64,000 nt of DNA from an uncultured SAR86 cluster bacterium (GTDB lineage: Bacteria > Pseudomonadota > Gammaproteobacteria > Magnimaribacterales > D2472): contig CABXVU010000002.1 in NCBI GenBank assembly GCA_902515775.1, positions 72,436-136,435 on the forward strand, given 5' to 3'. Shown here one piece after another: positions 24,714 through 63,058 of this stretch. Position numbers and translations under genes: made by a program. Under the pieces are notes generated by a model. That model made no database searches and was not told the DNA's origin. It saw only the letters and a list, made by a program, of their open reading frames with translations. Numbering within the stretch: the first letter of the stretch is position 1; each line of letters starts with the position of its first letter.

Positions 24714-26248
<1,535 letters not shown>

Positions 26249-26506
26249 ACGAAACTTTCGTACTAGAGTGCCCACACGAGTAATCAAATATTTAAGAGAA
26301 GTTATTTATAATTTTTGGTATGTAATTTTCTAGTAAATATTTTTATATTTACAGTGTCATATTTTTATCTGTTATCAAAAATATGGACACATTAGATCAC
26401 TGCATTAATAGAAGAAAATTTTATTAAGTTATTCTCAAATAACAAAAAAACTTAGCTCGCAAATACAAAGGAGAGCTAAGTATGTAGCCCTTTTTTAGGG
26501 TTATAT

Positions 26507-29396
<2,890 letters not shown>

Positions 29397-29466
29397 GTAA
29401 CCTTAAAAAAGGTTCCGTTGTTCAGGAATAACTTATTTGTAGTGATAAAAGAATTACATACCAGTT

Positions 29467-29584
29467 TGCCTGATGATAATAGCAGTTTGGTACCACCTGA
29501 TCCCATCTCGAACTCAGAAGTGAAACGAACTCACGCCAATGGTAGTGCAAGGTCTCCTTGTGTGAGAGTAGGTAATCGTCAGGC
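29467..29584 (+). rRNA. rrf: 5S rRNA
   Basis: GCCTGATGAT...CCCATCTCGAACTCAGAAGTGAAAC...GAGAGTAGG...ATCGTCAGGC. Confidence 0.96.
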
Positions 29585-42954: not shown

Positions 42955-43030
<76 letters not shown>

Positions 43031-43142
43031 AAAGATCGAAATTTTACAACAATAAATTAATTGAGGGAAGTTCATAAACAGAGCCGCTAAAAATATAAAT
43101 TATGTGTATAATTAAGACATTATTAATTCTCAGAGATAACTT

Positions 43143-43877
43143 ATGAAAAAATTATTTTTACTTTCAACGCTGTTTTTAAGTATTGGAATTTATGCGGATG
43201 ATCATCTGCCAGAAAACTTTTCAATGTACCAAGCAAATTTTTTGTTTAATTGCCCAGAGGCTGAAAAATGCTTTGCTGCTTTTGATAAATATATGAATTC
43301 ACCAATTGTTGCAAAAGAAAAATTCGAAGTTGATTTTCTTGCTCTGCAACAAAATGGTTGGGATGATTCAACTCATGCAGTGGTCTGGTATTACAAAGAC
43401 GCCGATCAATATGCAAAAGCTGGTGAAATTTTTGCAACCTCTCAAGAAGGAAGAGATTTTAGAAAAGCTATGAATGATATTGAGGCTGAAATTATTTCCG
43501 ATACATTAACTGTGCATACAGTGGGCGTAAGTCTTAAAGGAGATACCACATCCAACAGAGTATCGCTTCGATGGAGTCTAGAGGTAACCGATGCAGAAAA
43601 ATTTCTGCCATTGTGGACAAAATTTGCAAAAAGTCTTGAAGGTTACGATTGGGCATACAATGCTTATGGGTTGCAGTCTCATTATTTAGGAAATAATGGA
43701 AATGGAATTTCTCATGAAATTTGGGGCTCATTCAGTTCACCTCAGGACGCTTTAACATTTTTAAGTGAGCTTTATGCTTCTGAGGAATTTGCAGAGTATG
43801 CTCCGGAGGCAGACAAATACAGTATTTTTAAAAGATCATATATGGAAGTAAGCTTAAAGCAGTACAATCCTGACTGA
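43143..43877 (+). CDS. Secreted hypothetical protein, apparently two similar halves
   Basis: Signal peptide ending IYA/DDH; repeated pattern ..AEK(C)F...(F/W)xK.. in both halves. Confidence 0.7.
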   Translation: MKKLFLLSTLFLSIGIYADDHLPENFSMYQANFLFNCPEAEKCFAAFDKYMNSPIVAKEKFEVDFLALQQNGWDDSTHAVVWYYKDADQYAKAGEIFATSQEGRDFRKAMNDIEAEIISDTLTVHTVGVSLKGDTTSNRVSLRWSLEVTDAEKFLPLWTKFAKSLEGYDWAYNAYGLQSHYLGNNGNGISHEIWGSFSSPQDALTFLSELYASEEFAEYAPEADKYSIFKRSYMEVSLKQYNPD

Positions 43878-43893
43878 TTAACACAATTTAAAT

Positions 43894-43920
43894 AAATGGC
43901 CTCAATTTGAGGCCATTTTT
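43894..43920. terminator. Bidirectional intrinsic terminator
   Basis: AAATGGCCTCA-ATT-TGAGGCCATTTTT between convergent genes. Confidence 0.85.
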
Positions 43921-44473
43921 ATATTCTTAACTCACAACCCGTTCCACCAAGACCACAATATCCGTTAGGATTTTTATCAAGATACTGTTGATGATATTCT
44001 TCTGCAAGAAAATACGTATCTTCTTTTTTTACTTCAGTTGTAATCATTCCAAGATTGCGCTCACTCAGACTTTCTTGATATTTGACAAGGCTTTCATTGA
44101 TGGTTATTAAATCTTCATCATTTGAAGAGTAACAGACTGATCGATATTGAGTGCCAACGTCATTGCCTTGCCTCATTCCTTGGGTAGGATCATGACATTC
44201 CCAAAATATTTTTAGTAACTCCATGAGAGAAATAATCGCGGGATCATAATCTACTTTTACAACCTCAGCATGACCTGTTATGCCAGCACAAACCAATTCA
44301 TAGCTTGGTTCGTTATGATCACCACCAGCATAACCAACCGATGTCATAACTACACCAGGCAGAGACCAAAATTTTCTTTCCACTCCCCAAAAACATCCAG
44401 CTCCAAATACTACTGATTGTATTGATGATGATTGATCATGATTAATTTCTTTCTTGAAAACAGTATGGTTCAT
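43919..44473 (-). CDS. msrA: Peptide methionine sulfoxide reductase A
   Basis: GCFWG, GYAGG, TGHAE, QGNDVGTQYRS, AEEYHQQYL. Confidence 0.96.
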   Translation of the reverse strand: MNHTVFKKEINHDQSSSIQSVVFGAGCFWGVERKFWSLPGVVMTSVGYAGGDHNEPSYELVCAGITGHAEVVKVDYDPAIISLMELLKIFWECHDPTQGMRQGNDVGTQYRSVCYSSNDEDLITINESLVKYQESLSERNLGMITTEVKKEDTYFLAEEYHQQYLDKNPNGYCGLGGTGCELRI

Positions 44474-44477
44474 AAAT

Positions 44478-45224
44478 TTAATATATCCCTTTAATTGAAC
44501 ATTCTCCTGAACTAATGGATTTCAACTCATTCGATGTTTTTAAGAGCATGTTACCTTTTTCGTCGACTCCTTGAAAGATACCAACTTCTTCATCTTGTTG
44601 ATTATTAGATATAACTTTTAACTCATCACCAATATGCATGCATCTTTTTTCCCAGGCTGCTAACCAATCTGGGTAGCCGTTTTCTGCATAATAAATAATT
44701 GCATGTAAGATTGAATTTATAAGTTTTTCCCTTGGCATTATTTTAGCAAGCTTGCCAATTTCTCCCCACCAGGACTCTTTTTTAGGCAGAGCATAATTTA
44801 TTCCTATGCCAACTATGAATTCTATTTCACCATTTATAATTTCTGATTCAACTAAAATGCCACATATTTTTTGTTTATTTATTAAAAGATCATTTGGCCA
44901 TTTTAGCCCTGCATTAATTTTTTTACCTGATACAGATTCGATAGACTCAGATATTAGAAGTCCGATAATAAGACTTAATGGGATGTTATTTTTATCCTTG
45001 AATTTGATCGTCATGTAGATATTGCCACTATCTGGGCTGTACCATTGCTTTCCATGCCTGCCTCTCCCGGCGGTTTGTTGTTCAGAAATTACAATTAAGA
45101 AGTTTTTAAGTAATTCTTTGTCTTTAGCAAATGTATTTGTTGAATCTACTGTTTCAAGTAGATAAAAGTCTATATTTTCACGATTTAAGCCTTCCAAAAC
45201 GCCTTTTTGTGTTAATTTGTGCAA
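44478..45224 (-). CDS. birA: Biotin--[acetyl-CoA-carboxylase] ligase without HTH (group I)
   Basis: DSTN, QTAGRGR, KWPND, KICGILVE, GIGIN; TTG start. Confidence 0.92.
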   Translation of the reverse strand: MHKLTQKGVLEGLNRENIDFYLLETVDSTNTFAKDKELLKNFLIVISEQQTAGRGRHGKQWYSPDSGNIYMTIKFKDKNNIPLSLIIGLLISESIESVSGKKINAGLKWPNDLLINKQKICGILVESEIINGEIEFIVGIGINYALPKKESWWGEIGKLAKIMPREKLINSILHAIIYYAENGYPDWLAAWEKRCMHIGDELKVISNNQQDEEVGIFQGVDEKGNMLLKTSNELKSISSGECSIKGIY

Positions 45225-45283
45225 GTTATTATTAATCTAGTTGACTTCACCTCATTCTAGAACAAAAATAGCACCCTTGAAAT

Positions 45284-45368
45284 GGAGGAGTGGCCGAGTG
45301 GTTAAAGGCGGCAGACTGTAAATCTGTTCTCTATGAGTACGTTGGTTCGAATCCAGCCTCCTCCACCA
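45284..45368 (+). tRNA. tRNA-Tyr(GTA)
   Basis: GGAGGAGTGGCCGAGTGG...CTGTAAA...long variable arm...GTTCGAATCC...CCA, 85 nt. Confidence 0.96.
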
Positions 45369-45398
45369 TTTTTAATAGAATATTTACTGTTAAAAAGG

Positions 45399-45435
45399 TT
45401 GAGTTTATCAATTTTTAAGGGGATAATACGCCACC
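45399..45435 (+). promoter_or_regulatory. Putative promoter for tRNA-Thr-tuf
   Basis: TTGAGT-17 bp-GATAAT followed by GC-rich discriminator ACGCCACC. Confidence 0.5.
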
Positions 45436-45458
45436 TTAAATTGGATACTGTAATTCGG

Positions 45459-45533
45459 GCTCATATAGCTCAGCGGTAGAGCACTTGCTTGGTAAGTAAG
45501 AGGTCACCGGTTCAAGTCCGGTTATGAGCTCCA
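45459..45533 (+). tRNA. tRNA-Thr(GGT)
   Basis: GCTCATATAGCTCAGCGGTAGAGC...TTGGTAA...GTTCAAGTCC...GAGCTCCA. Confidence 0.96.
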
Positions 45534-45579
45534 TTTTGTAGGTAACAATAAGAGTTAATTTCAAAAAGAGAGGCAAGAA

Positions 45580-46770
45580 ATGGCTAGAGAAAAATACGAA
45601 AGAACGCTTCCCCACGTAAATGTGGGAACCATTGGTCATGTTGATCACGGAAAAACTACACTTACAGCAGCACTTACAAAAGTATGTGCAGAGGTTTACG
45701 GTGGTGAAGCAGTTGCGTTTGACGGAATTGATAACGCTCCTGAAGAAAGAGAACGTGGAATAACTATTGCAACATCTCATGTTGAGTACGTATCAACTGA
45801 AAGACACTACGCGCATGTTGATTGTCCTGGTCATGCTGATTATGTTAAGAACATGATTACAGGCGCCGCTCAAATGGATGGAGCAATCCTTGTTGTTAGT
45901 GCTGCTGACGGCCCAATGCCTCAAACGAGAGAACACATTTTGTTAGCACGTCAGGTTGGAGTCCCAAAAATTGTAGTTTTCCTAAATAAAGCTGATCAAG
46001 TAGATGATGCTGAATTGCAAGAACTAGTAGAAATGGAAATCAGAGAACTCCTCGACGAGTATGACTTTCCTGGAGATGACACACCAATTATAACAGGTAG
46101 CGCATTGAAAGCTTTAGAGGGCGACACATCCGAAATCGGTGTGGATGCAGTAACTAAACTTGTTGAAGCTCTTGACTCGTTTGTCCCAATCCCTGAAAGG
46201 GATGAGGATAAGCCATTCTTAATGCCAGTTGAAGATGTGTTTACAATCTCTGGAAGAGGAACTGTTGTTACTGGAAGAATTGAAAGTGGAATTGTAAAAA
46301 CCGGTGATCCATTAGAAATTGTTGGTATCTCTGATACTACAACTACGACTTGTACTGGTGTTGAAATGTTCAGAAAATCCCTTGATGAAGGAAGAGCTGG
46401 TGAAAATTGTGGAGTACTTTTAAGAGGTATTGAGAGAGATGCTGTTGAGAGAGGACAAGTATTGAGTGCTCCAGGGTCAATAAATCCCCATACAGAATTT
46501 GAAGCCGAGATATATGTTTTAAGCAAAGAAGAAGGCGGAAGACACACACCTTTTTTTAGTAATTATAGACCACAATTTTATTTTAGAACTACCGATGTAA
46601 CTGGTGCCTGTGTATTACCGGATGGCGTTGAGATGGTTATGCCTGGAGATAACATAAAAATGACAGTTACTCTCATTGCCCCAATCGCTATGGATGAGGG
46701 TTTGAAGTTTGCAATTCGAGAGGGCGGAAGAACCGTTGGAGCTGGCGTAGTCTCAAAGATTATTAAGTAA
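45580..46770 (+). CDS. tuf: Elongation factor Tu
   Basis: [25 protein letters not shown]. Confidence 0.99.
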
Positions 46771-46788
46771 TTTAAAACTTTACAATTT

Positions 46789-46813
46789 TGCCGAGATTAA
46801 CGCTCGGCATTTT
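46789..46813 (+). terminator. Hairpin / possible terminator after tuf
   Basis: TGCCGAG-ATTAACG-CTCGGCA-TTTT. Confidence 0.6.
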
Positions 46814-46835
46814 GTCTTTTAAAAGGAGAAAATTT

Positions 46836-46911
46836 AGGCCAGTAGCTCAACTGGTAGAGCGACGGTCTCCAAAACCGTAGGTTGGGGGTTCAAGTCCCTC
46901 CTGGCCTGCCA
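46836..46911 (+). tRNA. tRNA-Trp(CCA)
   Basis: AGGCCAGTAGCTCAACTGGTAGAGC...CTCCAAA...GTTCAAGTCC...GCCA; usual position before secE. Confidence 0.96.
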
Positions 46912-59246: not shown

Positions 59247-61340
59247 ATGGCAAGACAGACTGAACTTAGTAAGTACAGAAACATCGGTATTTGCGCTCAT
59301 GTTGATGCAGGCAAAACCACAACTACAGAGAGAGTCCTTTTTTATACTGGATTGTCACATAAAATTGGTGAAGTTCATGATGGAGCTGCAACCATGGATT
59401 GGATGGAGCAGGAGCAAGAAAGAGGTATTACGATTACCTCTGCTGCTACTACCTGCTTTTGGTCTGGAATGGAGCAACAATTCCCGCAACATAGAATTAA
59501 TATTATCGATACCCCCGGTCACGTAGATTTTACTATTGAAGTTGAAAGATCTTTAAGAGTTTTAGATGGGGCTGTAGTTGTATTTTGTGGCACTTCTGGT
59601 GTTGAGCCGCAATCAGAAACAGTTTGGCGTCAAGCAGATAGATATGAGGTTCCGAGAATCGTTTTTGTCAATAAAATGGATAGAGCTGGAGCAGATTTTT
59701 CCAGAGTAACTGGTCAAATTAGAGATAGATTAAAAGCAAATGTTGTTCCTATGCAATATAACATTGGTGCTGAGGATGATTTTAAGGGAGTGGTTGATTT
59801 AGTTAAAATGAAAGCAATTTTTTGGAATGAAGATGATCAGGGACTCACTTTTGAAGAGCAAGATATTCCAACAAATATTTTAAGTACATGTGAATCATTA
59901 AGAGAGTCTATGGTTGAAAGTGCAGCCGAAGCAAATGAAGAATTAATGAATGCATACATAGAAAAGGGTGAGTTAACAGTTGAGCAAATAAAAGAAGGTA
60001 TTAGAATCAGGGCCCTTGCCAATGAAATAGTACCTGCCTTTTGCGGATCAGCTTTTAAAAACAAAGGAGTTCAAGCAGTTTTAGATGCGGCAATTGAATA
60101 TTTACCTGCTCCAAATGAGGTAAAAGCCATCAAAGGATCATTGCCAGAAGATGAAGAGGTTGAAATAAGCAGATCATCATCCGATGAGGAGCCTTTTTCC
60201 GCATTGGCTTTCAAAATTGCTACCGATCCATTTGTTGGAACTTTAACATTTATAAGAGTTTACTCTGGCGTACTTTCTGTCGGTGACGGAGTTATGAATT
60301 CTACTAAGACAAAGAAAGAAAGGGTCGGACGAATGGTTCAAATGCATTCAAATGATCGCAATGAAATTAAAGAGATACGTGCTGGTGATATTGCTGCATG
60401 CATTGGGCTTAAAGACGTAACTACTGGGGATACATTGTGTGATTTGGGCGATCAGGTTGTTCTAGAGAGAATGGATTTTCCCGAACCTGTAATCTCAGTA
60501 GCTGTTGAGCCTAAAACAAAATCAGATCAAGAAAAGATGGGTGTTGCTCTCGGTAAACTTGCTCAAGAAGATCCATCATTTAGAGTTCATACAGATGAAG
60601 AGTCTGCCCAAACAATTATTTCTGGTATGGGTGAGCTTCATTTGGATGTTTTAGTTGACAGAATGAGAAGAGAGTTTGATGTGGAAGCAAATATTGGTAA
60701 GCCTCAGGTTTCCTATCGAGAAACTATAAGGGAATCAGTCGATATAGAGGGAAAATTCGTCAGGCAAAGTGGAGGTAAGGGTCAATATGGCCATGTATGG
60801 TTAAAATTAGAGCCACTAGGATTAGATGATGAATACGAATTTGTAGATAAGATTGTCGGAGGTGTTGTACCTAAAGAATACATTCCTGCTGTTGATAAGG
60901 GTATTCAAGAGCAGATGAAAAATGGAGTCATAGCTGGTTACCCTCTTCTTGCACTCAGAGCAACTTTATACGATGGATCATTTCACGATGTCGATTCAAG
61001 CGAGATGGCATTTAAAATTGCAGGATCTATGGCTTTAAAAGAAGGTTGCTTAAAAGCAAATCCTGTTCTATTAGAGCCGATGATGGCTGTTGAAGTTGTT
61101 ACTCCAGAAGAGCATATGGGTGATGTGGTAGGCGATTTAAACAGAAGAAGAGGTATTATTTTAGGAATGGATGAAATACCTACAGGTAAAACCGTTAGGT
61201 CCGAGGTACCTTTATCTGAGATGTTTGGTTATGCAACCGATTTGAGGTCTGCAACCCAAGGTAGAGCGAGTTTTTCTATGGAATTCCTAAAATATGCAGA
61301 AGTTCCAAACAACATAGCTGAACAGTTAAAAACTTCTTAA
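59247..61340 (+). CDS. fusA: Elongation factor G
   Basis: [34 protein letters not shown]. Confidence 0.99.
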
Positions 61341-61370
61341 AACAATAAACTTATAAATCCCCTAAATATG

Positions 61371-61400
61371 TTGACATTAGGGGCTTTAGAGACATAGAAT
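61371..61400 (+). promoter_or_regulatory. S10 operon sigma70 promoter
   Basis: TTGACA-18 bp-TAGAAT; the -35 sits inside a CCCCTAA/TTAGGGG hairpin. Confidence 0.6.
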
Positions 61401-61446
61401 ACGCAACATTTTGTATAAAGCTTAATATTAAAGGGGTAATCAAAAG

Positions 61447-61758
61447 GTGGAAAATCAAGCGATAAGAATTCGATTAAAAGCTTTTGATTATCGTTTAATT
61501 GATTCTTCAACAAAGCTAATTGTTGAGACTGCAAAAAAGACTGGTGCGATTGTGAAAGGACCAATTCCTTTACCAGTTAAGAAAGAAAGAACAACAATCT
61601 TAACGTCTCCGCATAAAGATAAAGATGCAAGAGACCAGTATGAAATTAGAACATATAAGAGACTTATGGATATAGTAGAACCTACAGATAAAACTGTTGA
61701 TGCTTTGATGAAGCTTGACCTTTCATCTGGGGTTGATGTGCAAATTAGCTTAGGCTGA
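61447..61758 (+). CDS. rpsJ: 30S ribosomal protein S10
   Basis: [28 protein letters not shown]; GTG start. Confidence 0.98.
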
Positions 61759-61770
61759 TTTGTTGCTTTT

Positions 61771-61810
61771 GTAACGCTTAGCGGCCATAGAGGGTTATAA
61801 GCCCCGTATA
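61771..61810 (+). promoter_or_regulatory. Putative L4-binding 23S rRNA mimic upstream of rplC
   Basis: AACGCTTAGCGGCCATAGAGGGTTATAAGCCCCGTAT resembles 23S positions 26799-26841 of this window. Confidence 0.6.
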
Positions 61811-61823
61811 AAAGGAGATTAAA

Positions 61824-62450
61824 TTGAGCATTGGCTTAGTTGGAAAAAAATCAGGCATGTCGAGACTTTTTCAGGAAGACGGCACCTCAGTTCCAGTAAC
61901 AATCATTTCAGTTGCAGCTAACTTTGTTGCTGATATAAAAACCCATGAAAAACACGGATACAGTGCTGTTGTTGTTTCAAAAAACTCATCCAAAAATTTT
62001 CCTAAATCTTCTACAGAATTTTTCAAGAAACAAAATCTTTCTAATGGAGAATTATTTGAATTTAGAACTGATGAAACTAATGAATTTGCAATCGGTCATC
62101 ACCTTACTGCAGATATATTTGAAGTGGGAAGAATGGTTGATGTAACCGGGACTTCTAAAGGAAAGGGATATGCCGGTGTTATCAAAAGACATAATTTTGC
62201 TATGCAAGATGCAACACACGGTAACTCATTAGCTCATAGAGCCCATGGCTCAATTGGACAATGTCAAACTCCTGGTAGAGTTTGGAAAGGAAAAAAAATG
62301 TCAGGTCACATGGGGCATGAAAGAAAGACGATACAAAGCTTAGAATTAATGGAAGCAGATGTTCAAAACAATTTACTGTATGTTAAAGGAGCAGTACCTG
62401 GATTCAATGGCTCAATACTGAAAATTACTCCTGCGGTAAAGCAAAGATGA
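61824..62450 (+). CDS. rplC: 50S ribosomal protein L3
   Basis: [27 protein letters not shown]; TTG start. Confidence 0.98.
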
Positions 62451-63058
62451 AATTAGATTTACTAAATGCCGAAAATAAAAAGTCCGATCTTCAAATTTCG
62501 GAAACAACTTTTGGTAAAGATTTTAATGAAACACTTGTTCATCAAGCAGTAGTAACTTTTTTAGCAGGTTCTAGACAGGGTTCACATAAGCAAAAGACTA
62601 GATCAGAAGTAAGAGGCGGCGGTAAAAAACCATATCGTCAAAAAGGCACCGGTCGAGCAAGAGCTGGAACAATTCGAAGCCCAATATGGAGGGGAGGTGG
62701 AGTTGCCTTTGCTGCAACATCCAAAGACTATAGTAAAAAAATTAATAAGAAGATGTATAGAGCCGCAATAAGCTCTATATTTTCTGAGCTGCATAGACAA
62801 GACCGCTTGGTAGCTATTGAGCAGCCTAGATTTGAAGAACCTAAAACTAAAGAAATGAGTAGCTTTCTTGAGCAGCTAAGCCTAAAAAATGTTCTCATTA
62901 TTTTAGATGAAATGGATACTAATTTGTATTTATCAGCTCGAAATATTCCCCACGTAGATGTCGTAACTGTCAAAGAAATCAATCCTGTGATTTTGTTAAG
63001 GTCTGAAAAAGTAGCAGTTACTCCAGCTGCATTTAAATTAATTGAGGCTTGGGTCTAA
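62447..63058 (+). CDS. rplD: 50S ribosomal protein L4
   Basis: [23 protein letters not shown]. Confidence 0.98.

Follow-up and report, generated by a model that had tools for sequence, protein, structure and literature searches.

A conserved mimic of the 23S rRNA L4/L24 junction between rpsJ and rplC in SAR86 bacteria, a candidate internal operator of the S10 operon

Gene layout around the rpsJ-rplC spacer

The window analysed here, a stretch of 64,000 nucleotides from an uncultured bacterium of the SAR86 cluster, contains part of the S10 operon, including genes encoding the ribosomal proteins S10, L3 and L4. The spacer between rpsJ and rplC is the subject of this analysis, and the genes around it are listed below.

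59247-61340, fusA, an open reading frame in which Pfam finds EF-G
61447-61758, + strand, rpsJ (S10), the upstream cistron, with a GTG start and a TGA stop (61756-61758); Pfam Ribosomal_S10, E 5e-33
61759-61823, + strand, the 65-nt rpsJ-rplC spacer, between the rpsJ stop and the rplC start
61813-61817, + strand, AGGAG, the Shine-Dalgarno (SD) sequence of rplC
61824-62450, + strand, rplC (L3), with a TTG start; Pfam Ribosomal_L3
62447-63058, + strand, rplD (L4), encoding the proposed repressor; Pfam Ribosomal_L4, E 1e-68

The ATG of rplD overlaps the stop codon of rplC (ATGA), and translation of rplD is therefore probably coupled to that of rplC. Downstream of rplD, the window holds rplW, with Pfam finding L23, and then the 5' part of rplB. 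The same gene cluster also includes rplX, which encodes uL24 and is found on the same strand some 5 kb further downstream. A promoter-like site, TTGACA-18-TAGAAT (61371-61400), predicts an rpsJ leader of about 40 nt, which matches the short leader proposed in an earlier, sequence-only reading of this DNA. The gap between fusA and rpsJ (61341-61446) has no tuf gene. An inverted repeat in this gap, CCCCTAA...TTAGGGG, seen by eye at about 61360-61383, holds in its loop the -35 hexamer of the sole promoter-like site. In the rest of the window, an Rfam scan places the rRNA operon at 24714-29584 and all four tRNAs at 42958-46908; it finds no tRNA gene in the 16S-23S spacer (26249-26506, about 258 nt).

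At the 3' end of rpsJ, a terminator-like 10-bp hairpin (61740-61763, + strand) covers the last codons and the stop, and is followed by a U-rich tract. This hairpin is kept in the genus of the window's own organism and in one other (loci L064, L065 and L081), with changes that preserve pairing. One such change falls in the stop codon itself, which is TAA opposite ..T.. and, in L081, TGA opposite ..C... The hairpin is missing from the remaining eight genera, and it might act on an S10-only transcript, either as a partial terminator or by stabilising the 3' end.

Metatranscriptome contigs from four runs, belonging to four studies, span rpsJ, the spacer and rplC. Among the differences listed, those inside the spacer fall on loop positions 61797/61798 only. 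These contigs, which come from RNA libraries, give no ends, strand or level and may include DNA, are a weak hint that rpsJ, the spacer and rplC are co-transcribed.

Mimicry of the 23S rRNA H18/H19/H20 junction

The core of the spacer is 36 nt long (61773-61808) and reads AA-[CGC loop GCG]-GC-C(AUA)G-A-[GGG U..AG C CCC]-GUA, in which the second hairpin is GGG-UUAUAAGC-CCC. The parts of this core, the flank preceding it and the site in the 23S rRNA gene of the same window that it resembles are as follows.

61766-61772, + strand, U-rich 5' flank CUUUUGU
61773-61774, + strand, AA of unpaired type, equal to the AA between H18 and H19 of 23S rRNA (Rfam LSU consensus 'gAA' before H19)
61775-61783, + strand, H19-like hairpin CGC-UUA-GCG with a 3-bp stem predicted by RNAalifold
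61784-61791, + strand, junction strand GC-C(AUA)G-A, equal to the 23S strand linking H19 and H20 except for its last base
61792-61805, + strand, H20-like hairpin GGG-U[UAUA]AGC-CCC (23S consensus gGG-UGAuAGu-CCc)
61806-61808, + strand, GUA, equal to the unpaired GUA between H20 and H18 of 23S rRNA
26799-26840, + strand, the mimicked 23S site, located by the Rfam LSU alignment and matched by the covariance model R1 described below

The resident 23S site consists of AA, H19 (26801-26816), GC-C(AUA)G-U, H20 (AGG-UGAUAGC-CCU, 26825-26837) and GUA. Its H19, CAUAU-UGGAAA-GUAUG, is the counterpart of CGC-UUA-GCG in the spacer. According to the Rfam LSU structure, every unpaired nucleotide of the H18/H19/H20 junction is retained in the spacer, and H19 and H20 are cut to 3-bp hairpins. 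In the spacer, the unpaired nucleotides of the 23S junction (nt 281-359 in E. coli) and the stem-proximal H20 letters recur with their order and spacing unchanged. The two differ in that H19, with 5 bp and a 6-nt loop in rRNA, has 3 bp and a loop of 3-6 nt in the mimic, the middle of the H20 loop is free, and H18 is replaced by non-conserved A/U-rich flanks. The mimic also differs in being part of an mRNA.

A local alignment of 61783-61809 with 23S positions 26816-26841 gave 22 identities in 27 columns with one gap, reproducing the count made by hand in the sequence-only reading. This alignment was the best match of the spacer in the whole window on both strands, and a score as good against 23S was reached by 8 of 1000 dinucleotide-preserving shuffles of the spacer. 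Further, 33 unique spacer cores from the family, and no rRNA, served to build a covariance model (R1). When R1 was run over the window with filters off, the spacer scored 60.4 bits and the 23S site at 26799-26840 scored 22.5 bits (E 5e-5) over the full length of the model, followed by a third-best match of 7.4 bits (E 1.5). Over the 1.26-Mb genome, the spacer and the 23S junction were the sole matches at E values of 1 or below. The likeness found by R1 is strand-specific, to the sense strand of the rRNA. The claim that the spacer mimics the 23S junction is thus borne out both by the Rfam LSU structure and by a model made only of spacers that finds the 23S site; the resemblance is real and non-random. 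Similarly, the assignment of this junction to L4 and L24 agrees with its published description as the primary site of uL24 and uL4 and of no other ribosomal protein (PMC6426284).

The mimic and the 23S rRNA of its own family differ in three stem or junction letters (A-GGG/CCC versus U-AGG/CCU). The last base of the junction strand is A in the spacer and U in the lineage's own rRNA, and the outermost pair of H20 is A-U in rRNA and G-C in the spacer (AGG..CCU to GGG..CCC). The own-lineage 23S reads GGCC(A/G)TAGTAGGTGATAGCCCTGTA in 42 of 139 family genomes, from five genera, and the 23S of one sister family has the same U-AGG/CCU letters as that of the family from GCC onward. At the base of H20, the mRNA mimic has A-GGG...CCC, as do many other bacteria and the Rfam consensus. 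Most of the ten 23S genes listed in the wide scan described below, including those of other phyla, read GGCCATAGAGGGTGA.AGCCCCGTA, which are exactly the fixed letters of the spacer. By these letters the mimic is closer to the canonical bacterial junction than to the resident rRNA. The element is thus no recent duplicate of that rRNA gene, and it and the resident 23S junction are conserved separately.

Conservation, distribution and predicted fold of the element

The genomes of the family were scanned with the pattern GGCCATAGAGGG-N4-10-CCCCGTA. The motif occurs exactly once per genome in 113 of 139 family genomes, covering 10 of 10 genera, and is present in 24 of the 26 family genomes that are at least 90% complete; a reversed control pattern had no match in the 139 genomes. 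Five motif-negative genomes were inspected, of which one differs by a lone A to G substitution in the AUA triplet, one has a contig ending inside rpsJ and three are without an S10 match. No member of the family was found to have the rpsJ-rplC junction without the element. In an S10 search of 41 related genomes, all 19 other genomes of the same genus with S10 carry the same spacer of 63-65 nt.

Across 72 unique loci from ten genera, 27 of the 28 positions that make up the blocks AACGC, GCGGCC(A/G)TAGAGGG and AGCCCCGTA never vary. The sole varying position of the fixed core is an A to G change in the AUA triplet (loci L081 and L096), and both the AA (61773-61774) and the GUA (61806-61808) are invariant in 72 of 72 loci. 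In the coding sequences on either side, invariant third codon positions number only 2 of 98 in rpsJ (ungapped codons) and 2 of 63 in rplC. The second codon positions of S10 are invariant at just 84 of 98, and the identity of L3 to the protein of the window goes down to about 62-68%. Within the element, only the two hairpin loops and the flanks vary. The loop of the first hairpin occurs in 20 versions of 3-6 nt on an invariant stem; that of the second occurs in 21 versions, in which the middle varies while the stem, the first U of the loop and the closing AGC do not. This is the pattern that would be expected of hairpins presenting fixed unpaired and stem-proximal nucleotides, and it points to strong selection on RNA sequence, far beyond neutral expectation.

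Outside the family the spacer is different. In three sister families of the order, represented by ten genomes, the rpsJ-rplC gap is -1 to 15 nt and the element is absent. In 16 genomes of three sister families, R1 found only 23S sites and one weak match in the rplB/rpsS region (14.8 bits), which was judged to be a chance match. A relaxed pattern of junction plus SD matched two of 401 class-level genomes, both of which are members of the same family as the window. A scan with the relaxed pattern over 185,579 species, each represented by one genome, gave at least 40 matches. Among the 40 matches listed, 24 are rpsJ-rplC spacers of marine gammaproteobacterial MAGs and SAGs, 10 are 23S genes identified by Rfam LSU (from Bacteroidota, a Lachnospiraceae MAG and a gammaproteobacterium) and 6 are unrelated. 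The listed 23S matches arise as H18 in these genes happens to hold AGGAG. For one of the unrelated chance matches (L112, 710-833), a tmRNA gene (Rfam RF00023, 60.7 bits) is found some 280 nt downstream, with no evident connection. Among the matches listed, the element is carried by the single-cell genomes SCGC AAA168-P09 and AAA076-P13; the former stands as an unclassified gammaproteobacterium in the NCBI taxonomy and is tabulated as SAR86 in PMC4611503.

Among the genomes sampled, the element is restricted to one family. The sequence-only reading had envisaged a covariance model of rpsJ-rplC spacers across Gammaproteobacteria; such a model cannot be built, because the element was found in one family only. 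The similar spacer that it proposed for Pseudomonas found no support in these genomes, a sample with no named Pseudomonas.

In these loci the element always lies just before the SD of rplC. In the window, the element ends at 61808 and the SD follows after 4 nt; across the 72 unique loci, this gap is 3 nt in 32, 4 nt in 23, 2 nt in 15 and 0 nt in 2. The distance from SD to start is 6 nt in 69 of 72 loci and 7 nt in the other 3 (AGGAG-N6/7-TTG). The rplC start is TTG in all 72 loci, so that the adjacency to the SD and a weak TTG start, noted earlier for this one genome, is seen in every unique locus of the family. In the sister families, the homologous codon is ATG in 8 of 10 genomes and GTG in 2 of 10. 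The weak TTG start appears to have arisen together with the operator, and the comparison suggests that the family has swapped tight rpsJ-rplC coupling for an independent, weak initiation site abutting an rRNA mimic. No intrinsic terminator is predicted after the element, the sole one on the + strand (61740-61763) being upstream of it. Intrinsic termination or attenuation by the element was rejected for this lack of a downstream terminator.

The predicted fold of the spacer is not unusually stable. The whole spacer has a minimum free energy (MFE) of -16.5 kcal/mol (z -0.75), and 45 of 200 shuffles fold as well. For the core of the window itself, an alternative fold reaches -8.5 kcal/mol versus -5.5 kcal/mol for the two-hairpin fold. 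Both hairpins are present in the MFE structure of 28 of 33 unique cores folded alone. RNAalifold also predicts the two hairpins from the 33 unique cores, with a covariation term of 0 and variation in none of the 7 predicted pairs (0/7). The register of the H20-like hairpin is ambiguous, RNAalifold preferring GGGU/GCCC. No pair covaries because the two 3-bp stems never vary, and the structure therefore rests on the analogy with 23S and on the variation in loop length between fixed complementary arms. Of the conservation and covariation expected in relatives, the former is seen, with 27 of 28 positions fixed; as to the latter, pairs that never vary speak neither for nor against the stems.

A third helix was also considered. 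In the window, CUUUUGU (61766-61772) can pair with AUAAAAG (61808-61814) to form an H18-like closing helix that takes in the first G of the SD. This helix is present in the MFE structure of the window's spacer, with a duplex energy of -8.4 kcal/mol (z -1.8). When flank duplexes of the 72 loci were compared with shuffled flanks, the mean z was -0.41 and 24% of loci fell below -1, which is no better than shuffled; in two genera the flanks are missing or non-complementary. The H18-like helix was hence rejected as a family-wide feature, and it is plausible only in the window's own genus. Since flank pairing is unsupported across the family, the element is described here as a junction core with two arms and not as a complete three-way junction. 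An anti-SD 'UCC' noticed by eye at the 5' end of the spacer in some genera was likewise set aside, being inconsistent across genera.

These properties bear on whether the element needs a protein at all. A purely structural module, its likeness to rRNA being incidental, might insulate rplC from ribosomes terminating on rpsJ, keep the SD open to ribosomes or shield the mRNA. The replacement of the sister families' tight coupling by an independent SD and TTG site would suit such a role, and Y-shaped junctions of this kind are said to self-fold (PMC6426284). However, a module of this type would be expected to accumulate compensatory changes, yet invariance extends to the stems and, most of all, to the unpaired nucleotides, and the element is fixed while adjacent third codon positions are saturated. 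The invariant unpaired letters are, moreover, those conserved in 23S, and the fold is thermodynamically unremarkable. We regard a protein-independent role as quite improbable.

A candidate operator, its ligand and its relation to known systems

We consider it rather probable, with some reserve, that the core (61773-61808) is an autogenous translational operator in the S10-operon mRNA, bound by uL4, perhaps jointly with uL24, and repressing rplC onward. According to this proposal, uL4 in excess of nascent 23S rRNA would bind the mRNA mimic. The bound protein would then block or trap the 30S subunit at rplC, because the SD begins 0-4 nt past the element and the TTG start is weak. Translational coupling would then carry the repression on to rplD and the genes behind it, since the starts of rplD, rplW and rplB overlap the preceding stop codons or lie right next to them. 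The rpsJ gene would be exempt, as it lies upstream of the element, behind a predicted promoter of its own that would give it a short leader. In functional terms, the element would be of the kind that may be called an rRNA-mimic autogenous operator: it resembles the rRNA site of a ribosomal protein from the same operon (rplD being the second gene downstream), it abuts the ribosome-binding site and it is conserved beyond neutral expectation.

The junction that is mimicked has two protein partners, and sequence cannot separate them. Both uL4 and uL24 clamp the isolated junction fragment, and do so cooperatively (PMC6426284; PMC2770661). In addition, uL24 contacts both strands of H18, of which uL4 contacts one, and uL24 makes more contacts with the H18-20 fragment and stabilizes it more strongly (PMC6426284). 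In E. coli, L4 is the feedback regulator of the S10 operon, and its binding to the leader is competed by the 23S site (PMC3616713, PMC10931766). We favour uL4 over uL24 as the probable ligand, because rplD lies two genes downstream and overlaps the stop of rplC, because L4 has a precedent as a regulator and because the helix gripped by uL24 has no conserved counterpart in the mRNA.

A role of uL24 as the sole or dominant ligand, through which the element would couple the synthesis of L3 and L4 to the protein that starts 50S assembly, seems unlikely to us. Its larger share of contacts and its stronger effect on the H18-20 fragment (PMC6426284) would fit such a role, as would the retention of all three junction strands in the mimic and the location of rplX downstream in the same cluster. 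Against this, uL24 holds both strands of H18 (PMC6426284), and H18 is the very helix that the mRNA lacks in conserved form; the operator stands directly before the L3-L4 pair and not before rplX. Further, no autoregulation by L24 was found in the accessible part of the literature on r-protein operon control, in which L4 is the known regulator of the S10 operon. Binding of uL4 and uL24 together is an equally doubtful extension of the uL4 proposal, in which the element would sense the opening step of 50S assembly through two proteins at once. If it were true, L3, L4 and the later genes would be switched off only if neither of the two primary binders finds a nascent 23S 5' end, and the 28 letters of the invariant blocks would be a naturally minimised definition of rRNA recognition by uL4 and uL24.

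Other factors could in principle read the same site, for instance an assembly helicase or a nuclease, or the conserved letters could act in DNA as a promoter or operator; both ideas appear very improbable. The E. coli helicase SrmB assembles on L4, L24 and the same rRNA region, yet its targeting needs L4 and L24 (PMC2770661), which leads back to an operator read by these proteins. At the DNA level, GTATAAAAG resembles a -10 box in the window's own genus, but other genera do not share the -10-like letters (GTAAAAGGAG, GTAAGGAG), a promoter scan found no site in the spacer and the likeness is specific to the sense strand of the rRNA.

Autoregulation of r-protein operons by mimicry of rRNA is textbook knowledge. 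To our knowledge, the long rpsJ leader of certain Gammaproteobacteria is the sole described case of control by L4, and its likeness to rRNA needed footprinting to be seen. The E. coli leader is reportedly without obvious secondary-structure likeness to the rRNA site, a finding ascribed to Stelzl (2003). The SAR86 element and the E. coli leader are alike in belonging to the same operon and in having the same presumed ligand, surplus L4 binding its own mRNA in competition with domain I of 23S rRNA (PMC3616713, PMC10931766). As the sequence-only reading had stated, the E. coli regulator is a long 5' UTR upstream of rpsJ, with five hairpins and an intrinsic terminator, that combines attenuation with translational control and includes S10 in the regulation (PMC3616713, PMC10931766). 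In contrast, the SAR86 element measures 36 nt and is placed downstream of rpsJ and ahead of rplC, so that rpsJ stays outside; it is followed by no terminator, and its likeness to the rRNA site extends to the primary sequence. Membership in the E. coli-type L4 leader class was thus ruled out, the element being located after the rpsJ stop, far smaller and without a downstream attenuator.

Internal operators are known for other ribosomal proteins. The operators of uS8 (at rplE in the spc operon) and uS7 (between rpsL and rpsG in the str operon) resemble the SAR86 element in that the repressor acts at an internal initiation region and the downstream genes are coupled (PMC10931766, PMC2704228); they differ from it in protein, rRNA site and operon. 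An earlier report of an internal operator site in the S10 operon was not found in the accessible part of the literature on r-protein operators. An L4 leader candidate from Archaeoglobi (Eckert and Weinberg, 2020; PMC7247131) lies directly upstream of rplC-rplD-rplW-rplB, as the element does here. It differs in being archaeal, in being rated uncertain by its authors and in not standing among their rRNA-mimic cases, as described in the available text of PMC7247131. The Archaeoglobi motif is the sole L4 entry among the 20 candidates in Table 1 of PMC7247131, and the SAR86 element is not among them.

In Rfam 15, no family has a match in the spacer at gathering scores in a search of the whole window. 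Searching the locus at E values up to 10 gave only noise, the best overlapping match being twister-P1 with 16.4 bits versus the 67.2 required. This answers the question, raised in the sequence-only reading, of whether a known ribosomal leader family covers the spacer: none does in Rfam 15. Similarly, no description of an rRNA-mimic element between rpsJ and rplC was found in the accessible part of the literature on the S10 operon, on L4 or on ribosomal-leader autoregulation. Thus, the kind of system is known, and its architecture, its location and the degree to which it mimics the L4/L24 site in primary sequence appear to be undescribed.

An abundant and uncultured marine lineage appears to solve the control of L4 in a different way, by means of an internal 36-nt operator that copies the L4/L24 junction. 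If confirmed, the element would be a new class of ribosomal leader for Rfam and would give an example of an S10 operon having S10 (NusE) outside the control of L4. It would also offer a minimal RNA for structural and biophysical study of how uL4 and uL24 recognize the first assembly site of the large subunit, as well as a one-copy sequence marker that is confined to this family among the genomes sampled.
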